Origin: Bacteroidales bacterium
GTDB lineage: Bacteria; Bacteroidota; Bacteroidia; Bacteroidales; FEN-979
DNA length: 64,000 nt
Direction of reading: 5' to 3'
NCBI GenBank assembly: GCA_023229525.1
Contig: JALNZC010000018.1
Span: 4,242 to 68,241 of the forward strand
Position 1 is the stretch's first letter. Each line of letters starts with the position of its first letter. This document shows positions 51,709 to 62,276 of this stretch, one piece after another. The notes beneath the pieces were generated by a model. It was not told the origin of the DNA. It worked only from the letters and a program-made list of their open reading frames with translations, and did not search any database. A program made the translations under genes and the position numbers.

Positions 51709-54700
51709 TTAGTTTTTTTGGATTTTGCAGGTAGTTGAGGTGGTGCCGGTATTAACATGGATGATATACATTCCTGTGGGTTGATTTTCCAGTGAAAACT
51801 GATGGATTGCTTTACCGTTGAACAATTGTTGCAGGATTGTTTTGCCGGTCATATTGTAAATTGTAAGCTGGATTTCGGATTGAAATTCCTGATGGCTGGT
51901 AATCAGGTTACAGATACCGGAGGTGGGATTGGGATAGACTTTTATGACGGGTTCGTTTGATAAAATCGAAGGATCCGATAAAACCGGTTTGTTATTCAAA
52001 GGATTTGATACTACAGGCGAAAGGGGATTACTGCAGAAGTTTCCCGATTCCGTGATATAACCATGAAAATATCCTCCTGAATTCACAAGGACTCCGGGAA
52101 GTAATGAAATTATATTTCCGGCGATCATTGTGACGAAACCACCACTGTCCACCACAAAGAGGTTGCCATTCCCTGCCACCATCAGGTTCTGTGTGGCATC
52201 ATAACAGGTGTTCTCCCCGTTTATGACGTTAATATTCGCTAGCTCCTGATTTTGGGGCGGCGTGTCGCTTTTTAATCCCGTGAACGATCCGAAGCCCGTG
52301 ATCCCTCCGGTAAAAAGCTGGTGGGCCGTTGTATTGGTCAAACCATAGGTTACCCAGGGTTCCGGGCTGACCCGCGTACCAGAGATCAGGTATTCCGAGC
52401 CGGTTACATCAACCGGAACATAATGAAAGGTGGCATTGCAGTTGAATCCTGAAATTCCTGTCCCGGATATCGTCCAATAACGGTTAAGATAATTGCCTGT
52501 GATGCCCGGATCGGGATATTTTTCATTGATCACAGATACTCCGGCAAAGTTTCCCGGAGCAAAAGTACCCTGGGTAAAATTCAGTGTCACGGGTGAATAT
52601 TCCGCGTTTCCGGTGGTATCTCCTACCGGGAAAATAAAACTCCCGGTAAAGCCGGGTGGAAATTCCTTTAAAAGCTGCTCCGAACCGGAAATGACAACCA
52701 TTGCATCGGCTGATGGTGCTCCATCGATGGTGGCAACCGGCCCCATGAAAAAACTATTTCCGTTGAGTTGTATTCTTCCGTGGATCAATGACAGTGTTCC
52801 TTCCACCCGGGTATTCCCGGTAAACGAAACACCGGATTCACTATTTACTGTGAGATGATGAAAAGTATTTTGCCCGGAGATATGCTGGCGGATAATCCCG
52901 TTAAGGTCGATTGTTCCTGTACCAAAGGAAACTTGTGTACTGTTTTCGTTGATCAGATCTTTGCTCACGATCACCGTTCCGATATTATTGAATGTCCCAC
53001 CGTTCCTGATGGTCAGACATTCCGGCCCGTCCATGGTAGCAGTTCCTGAAACCGTAAGAATACTTCCGGTATCCACAGTGAAAACGCTACCTGCCCTAAT
53101 ATCAAGCGCCGGCAGATAAATGTTATAATTCCCGCTATTGAAAGAAGTGCCGGTCACACCATTCCCAAGGATCACTTTCGAACCTGTCCCCGGTACCGAC
53201 CAGTTGTTTCCGAGGGTAGCCGTCGACCGGTTCTGAATCGTAAAAACCTGGTTGATAAAGTTAAATGCTGCCGGGTTTGTGCCTGATCCATCGGCCGACG
53301 CGCCCCAGTTTAACAGGTTATCCAGGTTGCCGGTTGGTTTTGAAAAATAGTTAAATCCATGATACCCTAGCCTTTCCGGCGTTCCGGTGGCAGCAGTATC
53401 CACAGCAATATTGGTGAGTTGGATCCAATCGCTCATGGCCCATACAGTGGATCCCGAGGAAATGTTGTTCCTTCTGTACAACGACATATCTGCGATGTTG
53501 TACGAGGTAGTAAGGTTGTCTATCACTTCTCCGACCACATCTGTCCTGGCATCCCATGCAATTGGGGCAACCGTACTTGGAGAAGTGGATAAAAAGATAG
53601 CATCATAAGCCCCGTTAAAGGTGAGGTTTCCGTTTGTATAGTCCGCTACTGCATAGACCGGAATTACAGCCGATGTATTCCTGGCCAGCCGTGAACTCCC
53701 GCTTGTAAAGATGCCCGTGTTCAACAAAGCACACAGGTTGGGGTTGGTGATGGTTACATCTTTAGGGCCAGATCCGGCGATTTGTAACAGGTAAACCGGA
53801 TGTGCGGCCAGGTCGACATCGGGTCCCAAGTTGGTGATCTCGATCCACTTGTTGTAACTTGTTCCTTCATAATACTGGGAAATGATGATATCGCCCGATC
53901 CAGTGCCTGATGAGGTTGTCGCGCTGGTTGTTGGTACAGTTCCATCGGTTTTATAGGCTATTGCTGATCCTGAATTGGTGTAGGAAAATATTTTGAAATA
54001 ATAAGTAGTTGACGAAGATAGTCCGGTGAGGATGCAGGACTGGACTCCGGCTGCCACATTCAGGTTCAATCCTCCGTCGCTCACGGGAGTCCCGTTCACC
54101 GGGAATTCAATGGCATCGAAACCGGTGGCGCTTCCACGGATAAGGTATCCATCGGGAAGAATGGCGCCGGTGGCATCGGTCCAGGTAAGGGTAACGGCGC
54201 TGTAAGCAGGAGGACCGGCAACGGAAGAAAAAGATGTGGCATGGTTGGTCGGTTCGGGTTTGATGGGCGCCGACGACCAGATTGCGGCTACATATTCGGG
54301 ATGGTCGATAAAGGGGTTGCGGTTATGCTGGATGTTATAGATCACGTTGTTGCGGTCGATCTCCTTTTGCGAAACCGGATCGGCCTGGTGCCACTGGATC
54401 ATCATCGCCAGCGCCCAAGGGTTAAGCTGTGAACCGGTTACCATATGGCTTCCCGGCCAGCCGGTATCTTCGGTATAATAACGCACCGACATATAAAAAT
54501 AACTCCGGGCGATATCGCCCTTGTATTCATCGCGGGGTTCAAAAACCGTCCCGGTATATCCCGGTGCAATGCAGGGCCCGAGTTTGCTTCCGTTCAACGA
54601 TGTCCAGTCGGGTGTACCGACAACTCCGAAAGGATTGTCGCTATGACGGTTATTCACATATTGATCCACAGGATAGATGTGAAACAGGTCGGTATACATG

Positions 54701-55116
54701 GGCATGACCGTTCCGCCGAACCAGCTTTTCGGGAAGGAGTGTTCGCGGCTGTAACAGTCGCCTTCATGAGAGGCATTACCACACTGGTCTGTGATAAAAG
54801 TATAGATATAGGGTGGATTTCCGTTGGGTGTTCCATTTGGGATATCGGAATAGATATCCCATACGGTGCCATTGGGTTTGTCGTCGGTCGTCTGGAAGGC
54901 CGTCCAGATATAATCGTAACTCTTCGCGGTGTGGTTTTTAATGATGTCGTGCAACGCCTGTTGCAAGGGTGTTCTTGTAAGGCCGATGGCTGAAGTGTAG
55001 TATCCGGGAGGGATCTGGGCAATTCCTGCCTGAAACCCAACAAGAAGTAAAAAGGATAATACCAGGGTACGATACAATCTGCGACTCAGACCTGGTTTTT
55101 TATTGTATGTATACAA
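51709..55116 (-). CDS. extracellular endonuclease I-family nuclease with Fn3-like, lamin-tail (LTD)-like and beta-helix-like regions and a T9SS sorting domain
   Basis: 1135 aa, paralogous to 49221-51500 over aa ~35-395 (YSREHSFPKSWFGG, VFEPRDEYKGDIAR, NRNPFIDHPE). LTD-like GDIIISQYYEGTSYNKWIEITNLG. Cys-to-Cys module at aa 971-1028, and C-terminal IKVYPNPTSGICNL...GMYIIHV. Confidence 0.85.
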   Translation of the reverse strand: MYTYNKKPGLSRRLYRTLVLSFLLLVGFQAGIAQIPPGYYTSAIGLTRTPLQQALHDIIKNHTAKSYDYIWTAFQTTDDKPNGTVWDIYSDIPNGTPNGNPPYIYTFITDQCGNASHEGDCYSREHSFPKSWFGGTVMPMYTDLFHIYPVDQYVNNRHSDNPFGVVGTPDWTSLNGSKLGPCIAPGYTGTVFEPRDEYKGDIARSYFYMSVRYYTEDTGWPGSHMVTGSQLNPWALAMMIQWHQADPVSQKEIDRNNVIYNIQHNRNPFIDHPEYVAAIWSSAPIKPEPTNHATSFSSVAGPPAYSAVTLTWTDATGAILPDGYLIRGSATGFDAIEFPVNGTPVSDGGLNLNVAAGVQSCILTGLSSSTTYYFKIFSYTNSGSAIAYKTDGTVPTTSATTSSGTGSGDIIISQYYEGTSYNKWIEITNLGPDVDLAAHPVYLLQIAGSGPKDVTITNPNLCALLNTGIFTSGSSRLARNTSAVIPVYAVADYTNGNLTFNGAYDAIFLSTSPSTVAPIAWDARTDVVGEVIDNLTTSYNIADMSLYRRNNISSGSTVWAMSDWIQLTNIAVDTAATGTPERLGYHGFNYFSKPTGNLDNLLNWGASADGSGTNPAAFNFINQVFTIQNRSTATLGNNWSVPGTGSKVILGNGVTGTSFNSGNYNIYLPALDIRAGSVFTVDTGSILTVSGTATMDGPECLTIRNGGTFNNIGTVIVSKDLINENSTQVSFGTGTIDLNGIIRQHISGQNTFHHLTVNSESGVSFTGNTRVEGTLSLIHGRIQLNGNSFFMGPVATIDGAPSADAMVVISGSEQLLKEFPPGFTGSFIFPVGDTTGNAEYSPVTLNFTQGTFAPGNFAGVSVINEKYPDPGITGNYLNRYWTISGTGISGFNCNATFHYVPVDVTGSEYLISGTRVSPEPWVTYGLTNTTAHQLFTGGITGFGSFTGLKSDTPPQNQELANINVINGENTCYDATQNLMVAGNGNLFVVDSGGFVTMIAGNIISLLPGVLVNSGGYFHGYITESGNFCSNPLSPVVSNPLNNKPVLSDPSILSNEPVIKVYPNPTSGICNLITSHQEFQSEIQLTIYNMTGKTILQQLFNGKAIHQFSLENQPTGMYIIHVNTGTTSTTCKIQKN

Positions 55117-55176: not shown

Positions 55177-55217
55177 GTCACGGGTTGCGGGTTGCGAGTT
55201 ACGGGTTATGGGTTGCA
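55177..55217 (+). repeat. family H heptamer/octamer units (cgggttg / gggttac / gggttat)
   Basis: gtcacgggttgcgggttgcgagttacgggttatgggttgcag. A related caagttgcaagttgcgggtg occurs at 63649-63670. Confidence 0.7.
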
Positions 55218-55228
55218 GTAATATTATT

Positions 55229-55483
55229 TCACTCCTCAATCTCGTCGTTTTCCGCTTCCTCTTTCTTCTTCCTGCTTTTGTAGAGTTTCCGTCCGCCATA
55301 TCCTGCTCCAAGAGCAAGGAGGATGCCCAGCCCGCCATCGATAGGGGCTCCGGCGGGCGCTTGGTTGGTGGTTTCTCCGTGGTGTGAGGGTGGATCGGGC
55401 GGATTGGCTTTGATTGGTTTGGAAACTAAGATCGCACATACGATCAGGGATACAAGTGCCAGGAATTTAATAATATTTTTCAT
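55229..55483 (-). CDS. 84-aa secreted protein with a C-terminal tripartite (motif-TM-basic) sorting-signal-like tail
   Basis: Signal peptide MKNIIKFLALVSLIVCAILV, a Pro-rich 28-aa middle, then PIDGG-LGILLALGAGYGG-RKLYKSRKKK and an acidic end EEAENDEIEE. Confidence 0.55.
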   Translation of the reverse strand: MKNIIKFLALVSLIVCAILVSKPIKANPPDPPSHHGETTNQAPAGAPIDGGLGILLALGAGYGGRKLYKSRKKKEEAENDEIEE

Positions 55484-55520
55484 ATTTTTTTGATTTTTAT
55501 GTTGTTACTCTCGCTGTTTC

Positions 55521-58500
55521 TTACCGGATGAATATTTTACCTGAATATGCTTTCTGATCGGTGATCACCTTCACCAGGTAATACCCCGTGGTAGCATGGA
55601 GGTTGATCTTCGTCAGGGCGCCTTCACTGAGCTTCGTCTGCATCATCTGCTGTCCCATGAGGTTATAGACCAACACTTCACCTTTAAGGAAAACGCCTGT
55701 ATTGTTGGAGATGTAAAGGGTGTTGTTCGATGAGTAAATCCTGAAAGGGCTATTGCCATCAATTTCATTAACTCCATTGGGAGCGCCAAAATGGACATTG
55801 AAGCGTTTCGGATTATCTCCTTCCGATGAGTTGAAAGTATAAACCGGGTTTTTTCTTAAATCCTGCGTTATGTTAGTTTTGGTATCCTCCAGTGAAATTG
55901 CTACATCATTCGGAAAATTGTCCAGTTTTGTTACCACGATCGAATAATTGTTTGATGCTCCTTTAATAAATTCGAGGGGGACTACCCGGCTGGTCGTCAA
56001 TGCCGGGAAGGTATTGAGCGACAGCTGGGTATTATCGGTCAGATATGAACACATCTGGGGTACAACCGAAGCGCCCGGTAAGAACGGAGAATCGTATTGC
56101 GGATCAAATCCTTCGGTGGCATGGTCGTTAAAACGGATAATATTTTCCTGGTAAGTCGTGTTTTCAGCGCTTTGTGCGGTAAGCATCAACAATGCATCGC
56201 CGGTACTTTTATACCAGGTTGAACTGTGCGTTTTGGCTGAAGCAGGAATGGTGAGGGAGTTGGTACCGCTGCTGACCTGCATAAAGAAGGCATTCATGGC
56301 CGGAATAACGCCGCCATCGCTGATATCGGAATAAGAACGGCCGCCATTTAACACTTTTCCGGAGGCAGTGCTTACATATCCTAAATCAGACATTCCGGCG
56401 CTATTCCATGTAATTCCGCATGGGAAAGGATTTGGGATGAGGTGCCAGCCGATACCTTGAAGAGGGGTATAGGATACATTTGCGATTGTATTGTTTGCAT
56501 TAGTAAGTGCTCCTGTGAAATATTTGGTTGCTGTTGTCTGATAAGAGCACATATATCCACGGTCGATACCGAAATCAAAATTTCCGGCAATCCAGTTTAT
56601 CCATAAGTTCTGGCTTTCATCAAACCAATAGAGATCGTCAGAACCGGAAGTCGGTTCAAATGTCGATCCCAACACGGTAAAGCTGCTCACCGGGCAGGCC
56701 AGCAAGTGCCAACCAGTGTTGTCGCCGGTGTAACCGGTAACATAACGTTCAACTGTGGCATTCACACCGCCGGTATTGTGGATCAATGAACCGGTGCCGG
56801 TGACATCGGATTTTACAACCATTCCGGAGTTTCCGGCGGAGTTGGTAAATGTCCCACCTAAAGTTAAGGCTTTCCCGGCATCAATGGTTAAACTTGCACC
56901 GGTATTGATAGTTAAATCGTTGCAAACTGCCGGTGTGCCTGAAGCTGAAGTTACATGAGGCTGATTTGCAGCCCTGGAATTAACAACTACATTATCCGAC
57001 CCTATTGGTATTGATCCATTATCCCAGTTAGATGAAGTAGCCCAATCGGTCGAAGAACCTCCCAGCCATCTCCCGGCTTCCGAACCTTCAAAAGCGCCAA
57101 CATCAGGAGGATTGGAACGTGTAGCCCCTTCATAATCAGTGGTAATGCCCGGGATATTGGTTCCGATCAGGTAACTACCGGTTGTGGGTTTTAAGTTGGT
57201 GGCAGAAGTAAAATTTGGATTGGTGCTGTAAGAGTTGGCGTCCTGAGAAGTTGCGGTTTTCCATGCGGCTAAATCAGCCTGTGCAGAACCAAGATATCCA
57301 ATATACTCGGTTACATCTGATTGATTTGTAAAATAATAATCGTTATAATTTATATTTGTATATGTAGTATTCGCAGAACCGGAATAGATTACATAAATTT
57401 CATTAGCCATTGTTGAACCCGAATATGCGCCCATCGAGTTTTGCAGTGCATTATTTCTTATATCCAAACTTGTAATACCAGACGTGACACCGATACAAGT
57501 ACTCATTCCGTCATACGATGCACTTTGTCCGAGTGTATTTCCAAATAAATAAATGGAGTTGTAGTATATTTTACAGTTACCACCCGAAGCAATATATATA
57601 CCTTGAGGGCTATATCCAATACCGGTTGCATCACCATCTCCTTTTATATTATATATTATATTATTCGATATATCAGTTTCGGTTGTTGCATCAGAAACAT
57701 AATAAATTCCGAAGCATCCATATCCACTTGTGCCTGTATAATAAAAGTCGTGTATGGAGTTTCTGCGAATTTTTGTGTTAATAGAAGATGTTGAAATATA
57801 AATACCTGCCTGGGAATAATTGCTGTTTCCGGTAACATCGCCATAAATTTCATTGCCCTCGATCAGTGAATTATCAGCCAGGGTAGTGGTTATTGCACGG
57901 TATTTCGAATATACCTTACAATTTTTAATGGTATTATCGTTTGCAGTATTACTTAATGCAATGGCACTGTTCAATGTTCCGGTATTACTGTTTGAGAGTG
58001 TCAGGTATTGACCGCTTCCGCCGTAATTACCATCAATGGTAACCCGGTCGGCACCGTTTAGACGGATTAAGCCACCTGCATAACTTCCGGATATTGTTTT
58101 GTTTACCGCTTCACTTGGCTGGATGGTCAGCGTGTAATTGCCTGCGCCGGATTCGGCCCATTGATTCAAAGCATTGGCACCATCTTCAGTTAAGTCACTG
58201 ATGATGGTCACCGTTAAATTACTTCCCAAACCAAAGGCATTGATATCAGCAAACAATCCGGTTACACCGGTAAGTGAAGTATAGTCAGCTCCGGTATTAC
58301 CCACTGTTTTGGCGCCAGTTAATGCAGCTTTGATTGTGCGGTTTTCTGGAGGAGCCTGAACTGTTGGAGTATAAGGATTTCCTCCAACAGTTATCGAATT
58401 GCATTCTCCGTCAACCACATTATCTATAGTGGCTCCTGAAGCAATATCATAAGTCAGCCAGAAATAATTTGTACCTGAAGACAACGTATAGGGTAAATTT

Positions 58501-61500
58501 GTTCCGCTATTAACAGTAAACGGACCGGAAGGTGCGGTTACTGTTGAACCGATCTGTGAAGTAGCTGCAAAAACACTGCTTGTTCCTGTTGTCCATAGTT
58601 TTGCATTAGAAATATCACCGGGAGCAGTTGATCCGTTCGTATTAAATGTAAATGAAGTAACGGTTAATGGATTCGCTGAATTGGCAGTAACAATCTGAAC
58701 CCCAATTATTTCCTGATTGGCTGAACCTGTAAGTACAAATGCCGTATTGGTTTGGGTGGTCGTACTTGAAGTATAAACCATATCCGGCGCTTCGTTTATA
58801 ATAACATCGTCAAGCCAAACGTCGGCATTACCATAACCTGCAGTAATTTTAAATGATAATTTGAAATTAGAAATTTTATAAGAGACCGGAATAGGTAATG
58901 TAACAGAAGTCCAGCTGGTATTGGACCCTGTGTAAGAATATGAAGCCAATTCTGTCCATACAGATCCATCATAACCCATAACTTTTAATGATCCGTTCCA
59001 TGAAGTATAAGGATAGGCGTATGAGAAAATAGCCTGAGGAAAATTTGAAGTTGATAAATCTATTGTTGGGGATTGCAATTCATCCACCTGTCCGGCAGTT
59101 GCATTATAATCGTTATAATGAGCTACATAATTTCCGCTTACCGGACCTGCAGGTTTGTTGGTGCCGCTTACACTTCCGGGAGCGCTCCATGTGCCGGCAG
59201 AATAAGTAGCCTGATCCCACACTTTATCTGTTGATCCAACACCGTTTACATTTGTCCAACCGGCAGGAGAAGGAGGTGTGCCACTCCATGTTCCATCAAA
59301 GTTCTCTAAAAAATATGCACAGGATATTGTTCCCGAAACAGCCTGCGTCAATGACCCGCCATCAGCCTGGATTTTAAACGTTTCCACCTTATTGTATTGT
59401 AAATCCGTCCATGTATTTGTACCGGTTGCTAAGGATTGTGTTAATCCTGCAATAGAAGATAAAGTCCCTGTTCCGGTATTTCTGGCAATTGTTACCGAAG
59501 CTGTATTATCTATATCAACATTTCCATTGGCATCCGTTGCATTAACGGTTGCGCTGAAGTTGGAATTGATCAATACACTCGCCGGTACACCACTGAAAAC
59601 CAATTTGGTAGCAGTAACGGTAATAGTATGTTCATTTGATGTAACAACGGCGCCGAAATCAGCGGCAAATAATGAGCCAGAGCCATCAGCAGTAAAACCA
59701 TGACCCGTGGCAGGTATTGTAAACTGAAGTTTCTTATTATCCTCTATGCCTGAGGTTTTCAGATAAACCGACATTGTTATCGATGTACTGCTTGCATCAG
59801 GAACATTCAGGTTACCCGCAGTAACAGGTATGTCAATATACGATGTAGTGATAGTCGGTGTTCCTATCGTTATATCACTTGAGCCATCATTAAGTTTTAA
59901 TCCGGCAATATTAGCTGTCCAACTGGCCCCATTGGCCGGATTGGCATTCTGGATGCGGATATTGGTTACTATTGTTGGCAAGCCGTCGCCAGAACCCATA
60001 TCGGTAATTTTAAAACGGAATACTTCCACGACAGCGCCTATTGTAGTAACGGTAGAAGCGATGGTTGTCCCGCTTATTTGCGTTGTTGGCGCTTCCGCTA
60101 TTGAGGTTTGGTCGTTTAACACGAATTCGTCAGCGCCGATATCGGGTGGTGTGCCACGGATAGCGCCGTCAATGTCTGTTGTAATATCCAGTGCATCTCC
60201 ATTGGCTGTTGAAATGGTAACTCCGGCGCCATTCAAATCGGAACTTGTGGAATGCAAATCGGTAGCAGATGCAAACTGAGGGTTTGCTGATTTTGAATTT
60301 GCATCCTGAGACGTAGCTGTTCGCCAATCTGAAAGCGCTGCACGGTCGGCAGTATAATAACCAACAAATCCGTTTCCGGTATTGGGAATATAATAATCGT
60401 TATAGTCTGTCGTATTTATTGTTCCCGATGATCCTTGTCTCATTATGCCGTAATGTTTTGGTGTACCGGTTTGGGTAGCGGTAACATTGGCAAATACATT
60501 ATCTCTAAACCTCATTGTATTTGCTGTACCGCCCGTGCTTATGATACACGCGCTGTTAATAAAGGTACTCCCTTCAATTCTGATGCTGTTATAGTACACG
60601 TTGGAAGTTCCGGAAGTAACACCCATTGCGATTCCTGTTGCCTGAATAACGCTGGAAGGTACACTCGTGGTTGCTGTTGTTTGTCCAGTTGTAATTCCAA
60701 AAATAAAATTATTATATACATTTACAGTTGAACTTGCCGCAACATCAAGCCTCATACCCGATGCAAGATAGTTTGCTGTTGAAGACGATGTACTGGAACC
60801 AGTTACAGGTCCAATTTTATTGTTATAAATTGCAGATGTTCCATAAGAGTTTTCAAGAAAAATACCTGCAAATTTATTGCTTGATGAAGTGCATGTTATA
60901 TTTCTTACAGTGGTGTTAAATATCTTAACCCCACTTTGATAAGTTACCCTGATACCATAAACAGAAGAAGATCCATTACCTATATCATTGGCAGAGGAAG
61001 ACCCAATGGTTGTGGTTCCACTTCCCGTTATTCCAACTTCACACCCTGCATCATAATACGTTGAAGAAGAGGCCCTTAAGTAAATCCCCGCATAAACATT
61101 TTCAATCGTAATGTTGTAATACTTATTGTTGTTATTATTTCCTGTGGATTGGTTAGTGGGTGTTGTGGCTGTATATTGATAAATCCCAACCGAAGAGGTA
61201 TTTGACCTGTTTAGCGTTATTTTGCTATTTTTAATTGTATTATTCTGTGCCCCGTTGGTTGCAGTAAGATTGTAGAGGTAATATCCATATTCAACAGCCG
61301 AACTTGTGGCAATTGTAATATCAATTCCATCGAATGTAATGTAATCGCCACCGGCAATTTTAATTCCTGCATCGGTTGTTCCGGTACCTCCTGTTGGTTT
61401 AATTACAGGGTTTGCACCTGAACCGGATTTTTGGAAAACAACCGGATTGCCCAAGGTACCGGTTGCAGTTATTGCAGGACAGTCTTCCGTTGAAACAAAA

Positions 61501-62276
61501 TCAGCATCCACATTAAAAGTTATACCGCCCGTCCCTACTCCGGCGTCGTTCAGTGCATTGATTGCAGCCGTAAATGTGGCATAGTCTCCACCGGATGATT
61601 TAATGGTCTTTATACCAGTGAGCGGAACAGGGGTCTCATCCACAACAAATTTATCAAGCCAGATATCGTAGCTTCCATATGTAGCAGTCACTTCAATTCC
61701 AAAACGTGCATTGGAAACTTTATATGTCTCTGAAATAGAAATAGCTATTTTAGTCCAGGCTACCCCTGGTTTTGTAATTGTCTGAATATCACTCCATGTA
61801 GAACCTCCATCATTTGAACCCCGGAGTTTTAATGTAAGTGAACTGGATGCATTTAATGCAAGATAAAATGTTACTCTTGGATTTGTTGAAGAAGACAGAT
61901 CAATATCTCCGGTTGTCAACTGGTCTTTCTGCGTAGCCTTGGCGTTATAATCATCATACCACGCAACAGAACTTCCGTCATATGCTCCCGTTGGCGTTGT
62001 AGGCGTTCCATGTCCTGCAGGGGACCATGCACTCCCAGACCAGGTGTTTTTAACCCAGTATATCGGATCAGTTCCGGAAGTTCCCCCTGTTGCAGTGGTG
62101 TGAATAATTGACCATCCTGAAGGAGCCGCCGGAGTGCCACTCCAAGCACCTTCAAAACTTTCACTGAGATATGTTTGCCCCGATGATCTTTGGGCAAAGA
62201 GAATTGCCATGAACAGCAGAAATCCGATAAGTAAATTTGACTTTCTCATAATATTAAATTTAGGTTGTTTTTTCAA
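55521..62276 (-). CDS. giant (2251 aa) T9SS-sorted surface protein with two tandem [MAM/choice-of-anchor-J-like + parallel beta-helix] halves
   Basis: Signal peptide. SFEGAWSGTPAAPSGWS (aa ~40) and FLENFDGTWSGTPPSPAGWT (aa ~950). PbH1-like repeats (NNTIKNSKI, NDNTIKNCKV, IRRNSIHD). Duplicated ATSQDANS(K/Y)S(A/T)NP blocks. C-terminal sorting domain (LVYNLMGQQM...GYYLVKVITD). Confidence 0.85.
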   Translation of the reverse strand: MKKQPKFNIMRKSNLLIGFLLFMAILFAQRSSGQTYLSESFEGAWSGTPAAPSGWSIIHTTATGGTSGTDPIYWVKNTWSGSAWSPAGHGTPTTPTGAYDGSSVAWYDDYNAKATQKDQLTTGDIDLSSSTNPRVTFYLALNASSSLTLKLRGSNDGGSTWSDIQTITKPGVAWTKIAISISETYKVSNARFGIEVTATYGSYDIWLDKFVVDETPVPLTGIKTIKSSGGDYATFTAAINALNDAGVGTGGITFNVDADFVSTEDCPAITATGTLGNPVVFQKSGSGANPVIKPTGGTGTTDAGIKIAGGDYITFDGIDITIATSSAVEYGYYLYNLTATNGAQNNTIKNSKITLNRSNTSSVGIYQYTATTPTNQSTGNNNNNKYYNITIENVYAGIYLRASSSTYYDAGCEVGITGSGTTTIGSSSANDIGNGSSSVYGIRVTYQSGVKIFNTTVRNITCTSSSNKFAGIFLENSYGTSAIYNNKIGPVTGSSTSSSTANYLASGMRLDVAASSTVNVYNNFIFGITTGQTTATTSVPSSVIQATGIAMGVTSGTSNVYYNSIRIEGSTFINSACIISTGGTANTMRFRDNVFANVTATQTGTPKHYGIMRQGSSGTINTTDYNDYYIPNTGNGFVGYYTADRAALSDWRTATSQDANSKSANPQFASATDLHSTSSDLNGAGVTISTANGDALDITTDIDGAIRGTPPDIGADEFVLNDQTSIAEAPTTQISGTTIASTVTTIGAVVEVFRFKITDMGSGDGLPTIVTNIRIQNANPANGASWTANIAGLKLNDGSSDITIGTPTITTSYIDIPVTAGNLNVPDASSTSITMSVYLKTSGIEDNKKLQFTIPATGHGFTADGSGSLFAADFGAVVTSNEHTITVTATKLVFSGVPASVLINSNFSATVNATDANGNVDIDNTASVTIARNTGTGTLSSIAGLTQSLATGTNTWTDLQYNKVETFKIQADGGSLTQAVSGTISCAYFLENFDGTWSGTPPSPAGWTNVNGVGSTDKVWDQATYSAGTWSAPGSVSGTNKPAGPVSGNYVAHYNDYNATAGQVDELQSPTIDLSTSNFPQAIFSYAYPYTSWNGSLKVMGYDGSVWTELASYSYTGSNTSWTSVTLPIPVSYKISNFKLSFKITAGYGNADVWLDDVIINEAPDMVYTSSTTTQTNTAFVLTGSANQEIIGVQIVTANSANPLTVTSFTFNTNGSTAPGDISNAKLWTTGTSSVFAATSQIGSTVTAPSGPFTVNSGTNLPYTLSSGTNYFWLTYDIASGATIDNVVDGECNSITVGGNPYTPTVQAPPENRTIKAALTGAKTVGNTGADYTSLTGVTGLFADINAFGLGSNLTVTIISDLTEDGANALNQWAESGAGNYTLTIQPSEAVNKTISGSYAGGLIRLNGADRVTIDGNYGGSGQYLTLSNSNTGTLNSAIALSNTANDNTIKNCKVYSKYRAITTTLADNSLIEGNEIYGDVTGNSNYSQAGIYISTSSINTKIRRNSIHDFYYTGTSGYGCFGIYYVSDATTETDISNNIIYNIKGDGDATGIGYSPQGIYIASGGNCKIYYNSIYLFGNTLGQSASYDGMSTCIGVTSGITSLDIRNNALQNSMGAYSGSTMANEIYVIYSGSANTTYTNINYNDYYFTNQSDVTEYIGYLGSAQADLAAWKTATSQDANSYSTNPNFTSATNLKPTTGSYLIGTNIPGITTDYEGATRSNPPDVGAFEGSEAGRWLGGSSTDWATSSNWDNGSIPIGSDNVVVNSRAANQPHVTSASGTPAVCNDLTINTGASLTIDAGKALTLGGTFTNSAGNSGMVVKSDVTGTGSLIHNTGGVNATVERYVTGYTGDNTGWHLLACPVSSFTVLGSTFEPTSGSDDLYWFDESQNLWINWIAGNFDFGIDRGYMCSYQTTATKYFTGALTNANNTIANVSYTPLQGIGWHLIPNPFPCGITWNSAGMSDLGYVSTASGKVLNGGRSYSDISDGGVIPAMNAFFMQVSSGTNSLTIPASAKTHSSTWYKSTGDALLMLTAQSAENTTYQENIIRFNDHATEGFDPQYDSPFLPGASVVPQMCSYLTDNTQLSLNTFPALTTSRVVPLEFIKGASNNYSIVVTKLDNFPNDVAISLEDTKTNITQDLRKNPVYTFNSSEGDNPKRFNVHFGAPNGVNEIDGNSPFRIYSSNNTLYISNNTGVFLKGEVLVYNLMGQQMMQTKLSEGALTKINLHATTGYYLVKVITDQKAYSGKIFIR

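Follow-up and report, generated by a model that had tools for sequence, protein, structure and literature searches.

Exosortase A (EpsH) with its PEP-CTERM signals, archaeosortase A (ArtA) with PGF-CTERM signals and rhombosortase with GlyGly-CTERM signals follow a common logic, in which a C-terminal signal composed of a short motif, a transmembrane helix and a basic cluster is served by a polytopic enzyme with Cys, Arg and His residues, in the context of extracellular polysaccharide (EPS) loci. For ArtA and rhombosortase, cleavage and attachment to a lipid-type moiety have been shown experimentally (PMC7468200). These signals sit on many, mostly large proteins, whereas the candidate substrate described here consists almost only of the signal. 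It is encoded in a stretch of 64,000 nucleotides (the window, C30:4242-68241 of a Bacteroidales genome of 4.18 Mb in 95 contigs; positions without a contig name are those of the window), where the gene for an 84-aa protein with a PID-CTERM sorting tail (a mini-protein, or mini) lies behind the gene for a giant type IX secretion system (T9SS) cargo protein. Paralogs of this mini are under purifying selection; family members co-occur with exosortase-family genes, in some genomes directly adjoin them, and are placed behind one family of T9SS cargo. Probably, an exosortase processes the mini to a short peptide that works together with the adhesin-like cargo encoded upstream.

Both the tail and the enzyme have named relatives in the databases. 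The PID-CTERM protein-sorting domain (NCBIfam NF046080) describes proteins with a signal peptide that end in the same P-I-D motif, hydrophobic helix and basic cluster, and the window protein does not differ from it in any of these respects; from the name of the family one would expect the tail on cargo, whereas in the genomes searched it was found only on mini-proteins. XrtX (NF046081) is the best-scoring model for the exosortase of this genome, and genomes with bona fide XrtX also carry PID-CTERM minis. The PID-CTERM family is database-curated and, as far as our literature search reached, unpublished and experimentally untested; the search returned nothing on 'PID-CTERM' or, in the relevant sense, on 'XrtX'.

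Two T9SS-related arrangements bear comparison. In Flavobacterium, PorP/SprF-like genes lie downstream of genes for cargo with a type B C-terminal domain (CTD). Those accessory genes are likewise small, dedicated and directly downstream of particular T9SS cargo, whereas here the cargo carries a type A sorting domain and the downstream product is an exosortase-type mini rather than a PorP-like outer-membrane protein. To our knowledge, surface retention of T9SS cargo outside Porphyromonas and Tannerella is largely open, and we know of no exosortase product that has been chemically defined in bacteria. In the PorU/Wbp/Vim route of attachment to anionic lipopolysaccharide, VimA, a FemAB protein of the TIGR03019 type, and VimE, a deacetylase, build the aminoacyl linking sugar that PorU uses to anchor T9SS cargo (Veith et al., PMC7468200). 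PorU and exosortase systems are both of transpeptidase type with an amine acceptor, and Veith et al. speculate that exosortases use related acceptors (PMC7468200).

The mini-protein and its parts

A preliminary description of the locus, made from the letters alone, had divided an 84-aa open reading frame (ORF) into a signal peptide, a Pro-rich segment, a motif, a helix, a basic cluster and an acidic extension. The translation of 55229..55483 on the reverse strand matches this architecture exactly, part by part, except that the Pro-rich segment, given as 28 aa, is 20 residues long. The gene, its parts in order from the N-terminus of the protein, and the spacer that separates it from the cargo gene are as follows.

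55229..55483, reverse strand: gene for the 84-aa PID-CTERM mini-protein, stop codon at 55229-55231 (ORF list, NF046080 match, 10 paralogs)
55406..55483, reverse strand: predicted Sec/signal peptidase I signal peptide, residues 1-26, MKNIIKFLALVSLIVCAILVSKPIKA (sequence and alignment A2 of homologs)
55346..55405, reverse strand: Pro-rich segment, residues 27-46, NPPDPPSHHGETTNQAPAGA (alignment A2)
55331..55345, reverse strand: PIDGG signature motif, residues 47-51 (NF046080 match and A2)
55292..55330, reverse strand: Gly/Ala/Leu transmembrane helix, residues 52-64, LGILLALGAGYGG (inside the NF046080 match)
55232..55291, reverse strand: predicted cytoplasmic tail, consisting of the basic cluster RKLYKSRKKK (65-74) and the acidic extension EEAENDEIEE (75-84) (sequence, homologs)
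55484..55520, reverse strand: 37-nt spacer from the cargo gene to the mini gene, with no promoter- or terminator-like site

The tail had been proposed to be an exosortase-type sorting signal, and the existence of a matching named domain had been left to profile searches. On both counts the searches bore the proposal out: NF046080 matches residues 47-69 at 38.5 bits (E = 7e-10, curated cut-off 26), and the same tail scores 39.9 bits in a six-frame search of the genome. Among the other NCBIfam sorting-domain models, only PFE_CTERM appeared at E <= 10, with 13.1 bits versus a cut-off of 24, and there was no PEP-CTERM match. Read from the sequence and from A2, the protein has an N-terminal signal peptide and, towards the C-terminus, the tripartite signal of such substrates (motif, transmembrane helix and basic cluster). 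Relatives in a collection of 5.8 billion proteins carry the precomputed Pfam family PF28310.

Within the motif, Pro47 and Gly51 are invariant in A2 and Ile48 is conserved in at least 90% of the sequences; Leu55, Tyr62 and Gly63 of the helix and Lys66 and Lys72 of the tail each reach the same level. The acidic extension after the basic cluster is variable, yet common in homologs. The signal-peptide-like N-terminus ends in IKA, and all homologs in A2 begin with MKK and a hydrophobic stretch that ends in A-x-A/Q right before the start of the Pro-rich segment; signal-peptide cleavage would be expected after Ala26. A lipoprotein signal peptide (L-I-V-C) was considered and rejected: among the paralogs the Cys is present in copies a and d only, and a lipobox is unlikely because Cys16 is not conserved. 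The Pro-rich segment varies in length and composition, with Pro31 invariant in A2; it measures about 10-14 aa where the copy adjoins an exosortase gene and 20-40 aa where it adjoins a cargo gene. Were the signal peptide and the sorting signal both cleaved off, these residues 27-46 would be the sole remainder of the protein.

The preliminary description had also advised looking for other proteins with this tail, and the genome contains ten PID-CTERM matches; the open frames that hold them measure 84-103 aa. They share one plan: an MKK-signal, (A)(D/N/Q)NPPPPP..G.G..NQAPAGA, PIDGGLGILL.(L/M)GA.YGG and a basic tail. Pairwise ratios of nonsynonymous to synonymous substitution rates (dN/dS) among the paralogs are 0.13-0.43, which indicates that they are under purifying selection as proteins. 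The 84-aa protein is a typical member of a mini-protein family, not a degenerate cargo. One paralog outside the window, C90:97153 (region C90:97153-98344), has its C-terminus replaced after PIDRGLGILFVLGAAYGGYKI. A 322-aa insertion sequence (IS)-like ORF on the opposite strand overlaps the end of this copy, so that the loss is probably due to an insertion.

PID-CTERM tails sit on mini-proteins

All 144 homologs found in a length-restricted search are 69-103 aa long. With no length filter, 908 relatives were retrieved at E <= 1e-3 among 1.84 billion cluster representatives (50% identity), and the best 150 of these 908 measure 62-107 aa with three exceptions (146, 155 and 241 aa), two of which are apparent doubled minis. 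Genome searches covered 602 genomes, 201 from the same order and 401 from the phylum, and every PID-CTERM match in them fell in an open frame of about 30-170 aa. A PID-CTERM tail on a large protein, sought in the 602 genomes and in the 1.84-billion-protein search without length limit, was found in none; the rare longer matches are doubled minis or long stop-to-stop frames rather than large cargo. Since the tail occurs on no conventional cargo domain, the family consists of mini-proteins.

Two kinds of longer frame were seen. P0205 (155 aa) and P0213 (146 aa) each contain two mini units in tandem, and at G151:C42:102-317 a mini and the gene after it occupy a single 1665-aa open frame. Read-through or fusion could account for these forms.

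The motif itself is not uniform. In several genomes (loci L160, L164, L165, L168, L173, L179, L180 and others) the Asp is replaced by Gly, giving PIGGG, PIGSG or PIGNG, and the name-giving Asp is therefore not essential. NF046080 under-detects such copies, which score 26-28 bits or below.

Mini-proteins co-occur with an exosortase

Within the order, PID-CTERM matches occur in 53 of the 201 genomes and XrtX-like genes in 91. Both are present in 50 genomes, minis only in 3, the enzyme only in 41 and neither in 107 (Fisher p = 2e-18); in other words, an XrtX-like gene accompanies minis in 50 of 53 genomes and is found in 41 of the 148 genomes without minis. A full-length hidden Markov model (HMM) of the mini, built from A2, was applied to 11 further genomes with the same type of enzyme as this genome (the own-type enzyme) and no NF046080 match, and it recovered minis in 8 of them, many with PIGGG or PIGSG variants. 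The same HMM found minis in none of 12 genomes that lack any exosortase.

The preliminary description had pointed to an exosortase-family enzyme and to the Bacteroidota exosortase XrtF. The first part stood: exactly one exosortase/archaeosortase-family gene is present in the genome, outside the window (C64:187373-187999, 208 aa), and it scores 65-68 bits on the superfamily signature TIGR04178 (cut-off 23). The second did not, as the gene reaches 50.6-50.7 bits on the XrtF model TIGR04128, below the cut-off of 90. Its best specific model is XrtX, with 94.8 bits against a cut-off of 170 that no genome of the order attains (maximum 135.7 bits). Cys112, Arg153 and His172 are invariant across 39 aligned related enzymes, and own-type enzymes share the motif SCSG.KQ ... 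PGPWKHKLW.IP ... SHD. In a tree, the own-type clade stands apart from bona fide XrtX, from a second XrtX-like clade of the order (motif RGCLGRN ... NHH) and from two f150 sequences, which we take to be XrtF-like, an assumption made without comparison to the XrtF model. By sequence, the enzyme is XrtX-like and forms a separate clade, for which we found no dedicated model. It further differs from XrtX in its EPS/Vim-like locus, in being unlinked to the minis and in the absence of the XrtX-associated membrane protein NF046082, which is missing from this genome and nine other tested members of the order and was found only in G351 and G529 among the genomes tested.

Adjacency joins minis and enzymes in several relatives. 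Eleven minis, in 11 genomes, lie directly upstream of a second-clade exosortase, and these are the shortest of all, in which only some 10-14 residues (QPPPPP.P..I) separate PIDGG from the predicted signal-peptide cut. Own-type exosortases have a mini directly upstream in G083 and G054, and there the T9SS cargo with the conserved module described below, the mini and the exosortase follow one another in that order on one strand. Across the phylum, bona fide XrtX (at least 170 bits) is present in 63 of 401 genomes, mostly from another class, which also has PID-CTERM minis; in these bona fide XrtX genomes some of the minis adjoin the enzyme gene.

In this genome, the exosortase gene is part of an EPS-type locus (C64:184279-193751) comprising a 589-aa ORF, a Fic-domain ORF, the exosortase, a FemAB/VimA-like gene, a toxin-antitoxin-like pair, a polysaccharide deacetylase and a sugar transferase. 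The 589-aa ORF gave no family match; judging by eye from its N-terminal sequence, we take it to be a Wzi-like outer-membrane protein. The FemAB/VimA-like neighbour is TIGR03019-like by a weak match (40 bits versus a cut-off of 260). The neighbourhood recurs in G117, and a homolog of the 589-aa ORF adjoins the exosortase in G095, G041 and G117. The VimA-like and deacetylase genes flanking the exosortase recall the PorU route, in which a part for the mini or the exosortase is hypothetical. A FemAB-like gene was rejected as a general exosortase neighbour, as among 16 loci it occurs only in this genome, G117 and G191 (about 4 kb away). The Fic-domain ORF in the locus looks inserted.

One family of T9SS cargo precedes the mini-proteins

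The preliminary description had the mini gene beginning 37 nt after the stop of the giant gene and co-oriented with T9SS cargo genes. Both observations hold: the spacer is 55484-55520, and the giant gene and an Endonuclease I gene on the other side of the mini are both on the reverse strand and encode T9SS domains. The features of the giant gene are as follows.

55521..62276, reverse strand: gene for the 2251-aa partner cargo, with a signal peptide, BNR_assoc_N and MAM-like regions, a module before the CTD and a T9SS type A domain (Pfam, TIGR04183)
55770..57008, reverse strand: conserved all-beta module of about 395 aa, shortly before the sorting domain (HMM from this genome's copies)
55527..55721, reverse strand: T9SS type A C-terminal sorting domain of the giant, residues 2186-2250 (TIGR04183)

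The giant's sorting domain is borderline by score (TIGR04183, 23.2 bits versus a cut-off of 23; PF18962, 17.1 bits, below its cut-off of 27), and its paralogous and orthologous counterparts upstream of other minis score higher on the sorting-domain models. Neither a promoter-like nor a terminator-like site was found in the 37-nt spacer. Cargo and mini are probably co-transcribed.

We surveyed the neighbourhoods of every mini above the cut-off in the order, 111 in total from 44 genomes. Seventy-two minis, from 28 genomes, directly follow a T9SS-CTD ORF on the same strand, at a median gap of about 40 nt; of the remainder, 11 stand before an exosortase, 18 lack both kinds of neighbour and for 10 the upstream sequence is too short. 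The 72 calls come from a local T9SS-CTD classifier trained on the same set; as an independent check, Pfam PF18962 confirms 67 of 85 upstream C-termini. The position of the mini 37 nt behind the giant gene is a conserved hallmark of the family, not an incidental feature of this contig.

The cargo proteins concerned have the pre-CTD module in common. A profile made exclusively from this genome's copies of the module matches all 63 T9SS-type upstream ORFs in other genomes (E 1e-26 to 1e-150) and none of 13 non-T9SS upstream ORFs. In this genome, 17 ORFs bear the module, nine of which are followed by a mini and one more of which runs into a contig end; counted from the other side, nine of the ten minis follow a module-bearing ORF, with 150 or more T9SS-CTD ORFs as the background. 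The pairing extends to other classes of the phylum with bona fide XrtX, in which 19 minis follow a module-matching ORF (sample of 30 loci). Minis are thus placed near-obligately behind one cargo family, and the dependence is one-sided.

The module is present in 17 copies in this genome and in up to 33 in relatives. The N-terminal parts of the proteins that carry it differ widely, including FN3, PKD, beta-helix, LRR, MAM, subtilase, amylase and choice-of-anchor J/Q domains, and by sequence, variable heads appear to sit on the module as a constant base. It matched no Pfam or NCBIfam family. An AlphaFold2 model is all-beta (pLDDT 79.5, pTM 0.65) and gave no significant match in the PDB, with a best E of 0.1 and TM (template modelling) scores below 0.15. 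As regards the wider secretome, the genome encodes at least 150 ORFs with a T9SS type A sorting domain (211 candidates), a very large set for 4.2 Mb.

Proposed function and alternatives

The reading that we consider probable is that an exosortase-processed mini-peptide works together with the adhesin-like T9SS cargo encoded upstream. By analogy with archaeosortase A and rhombosortase, Sec would export the mini and signal peptidase I would cut off residues 1-26, leaving a single-pass inner-membrane protein with its 20-residue Pro-rich N-terminus in the periplasm and its basic tail in the cytoplasm. The genome's sole exosortase-family enzyme, with Cys112, Arg153 and His172, would then recognise the PIDGG-helix-basic signal, cleave at or near PIDGG and pass the short peptide via its new C-terminus to an amine-bearing acceptor. 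Given that VimA-like and deacetylase genes flank the exosortase, a glycolipid is at most a reasonable guess for this acceptor. The processed peptide would act with the cargo encoded 37 nt upstream, most likely as a surface tether or as a docking partner for the module of about 395 aa.

In a more specific and rather doubtful version, the exosortase would fix the C-terminus of the Pro-rich peptide to a lipid or to a VimA/VimE-like aminoacyl-sugar glycolipid, and the cargo would be held at the surface through the peptide. This bridge could be covalent, with PorU using the free N-terminal amine of the peptide as its acceptor, or non-covalent, with the cargo held through its pre-CTD module. In many homologs, Gln is the first residue after the predicted signal-peptide cut. 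An N-terminal Gln in this position is typically cyclised in Bacteroidota; the amine would therefore be blocked, which weighs against the covalent bridge. The many module-bearing cargo proteins that have no mini weigh against the bridge as well.

The family provides a minimal candidate exosortase substrate of about 20 residues, which should be easy to follow by mass spectrometry, and its gene is physically tied to one T9SS surface-protein family across the phylum. If this coupling is functional, then the inner-membrane exosortase and the outer-membrane T9SS/PorU machinery, which have been treated as separate, act on the same surface structures; if the peptide indeed served as a bridge, exosortases would be part of T9SS cargo anchoring. 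The present genome adds a dispersed ten-copy system, a distinct exosortase clade and an EPS/Vim-like neighbourhood that suggests candidate acceptors.

Several results weigh against processing by the exosortase or against a joint action with the cargo. Module-bearing cargo often has no mini (8 of 17 cases in this genome), and the module is present in 4 of 12 genomes that have neither minis nor an exosortase; a strict co-distribution of module and minis was accordingly rejected, and the mini is not generally required for the cargo family. The exosortase gene of this genome is unlinked to all ten minis. Conversely, the full-length HMM detected no mini in three genomes with an own-type exosortase, while G122, a 99% complete member of the same GTDB family, has three minis and no detectable exosortase, as do the more fragmentary G084 and G157 with their minis. 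The replacement of the motif Asp by Gly in several genomes counts on the same side, and our literature search found neither a PID-CTERM protein nor an XrtX-family enzyme that had been studied by experiment. Two of the G122 minis carry PIDSG or PIDNG, and this genome also has four module-bearing ORFs.

The mini might instead stay uncleaved in the inner membrane as a single-pass partner whose Pro-rich end binds or escorts the cargo, for example by its module, before T9SS export. Such a role would suit the minis that G122 keeps without a detectable exosortase, the variable Asp of the motif, the linkage of this genome's minis to cargo genes rather than to the exosortase, and a mature peptide that is too short for a conventional sorted protein. 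We nevertheless regard it as unlikely: minis and exosortases co-occur strongly across the order, the exosortase-free controls are devoid of minis, minis directly adjoin exosortase genes in at least 13 genomes, and conservation within the protein is highest in exactly the motif-helix-basic signal that is typical of exosortase/archaeosortase substrates.

A further alternative keeps the processing by the exosortase and gives up the link to the cargo; the product would be an independent surface or EPS peptide, and the adjacency of the two genes would reflect co-duplication or shared regulation. The cargo-mini pairs of this genome are in part recent duplicates, and the module-bearing genes without a mini, like the module in some mini-free genomes, are compatible with this idea. 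We hold it to be quite improbable, as minis are paired with one specific cargo family both within the order (28 genomes spanning many GTDB families) and in other classes of the phylum, the gap between the genes is tight, and cargo, mini and exosortase form a single string in two genomes.

It is very improbable that the tail is the sorting signal of exosortase F. The genome's exosortase does match the XrtF model weakly, but XrtF was rejected as its identity on score and tree: it falls short of the XrtF cut-off and scores best with XrtX, the presumed XrtF-like f150 pair forms a clade separate from the own-type clade, and most f150 genomes with the presumed XrtF-like enzyme have no PID-CTERM match. 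A chance ORF or mis-called gene, for which only the small size and the low-complexity middle part could be adduced, is refuted by conservation and retains practically no probability, considering the HMM E-value of 7e-10, the 908 related clusters, the dN/dS of 0.13-0.43 and the conserved synteny.

Neighbouring features

On its other side, the mini gene is followed by the second T9SS cargo gene.

51709..55116, reverse strand: gene downstream of the mini, encoding an Endonuclease I protein that carries a C-terminal T9SS domain (Pfam)

Directly after the stop of the mini gene, at 55177-55217, lies a run of GGGTTGC/GGGTTAT-like heptamers, cacgggttgcgggttgcgagttacgggttatgggttgcag.

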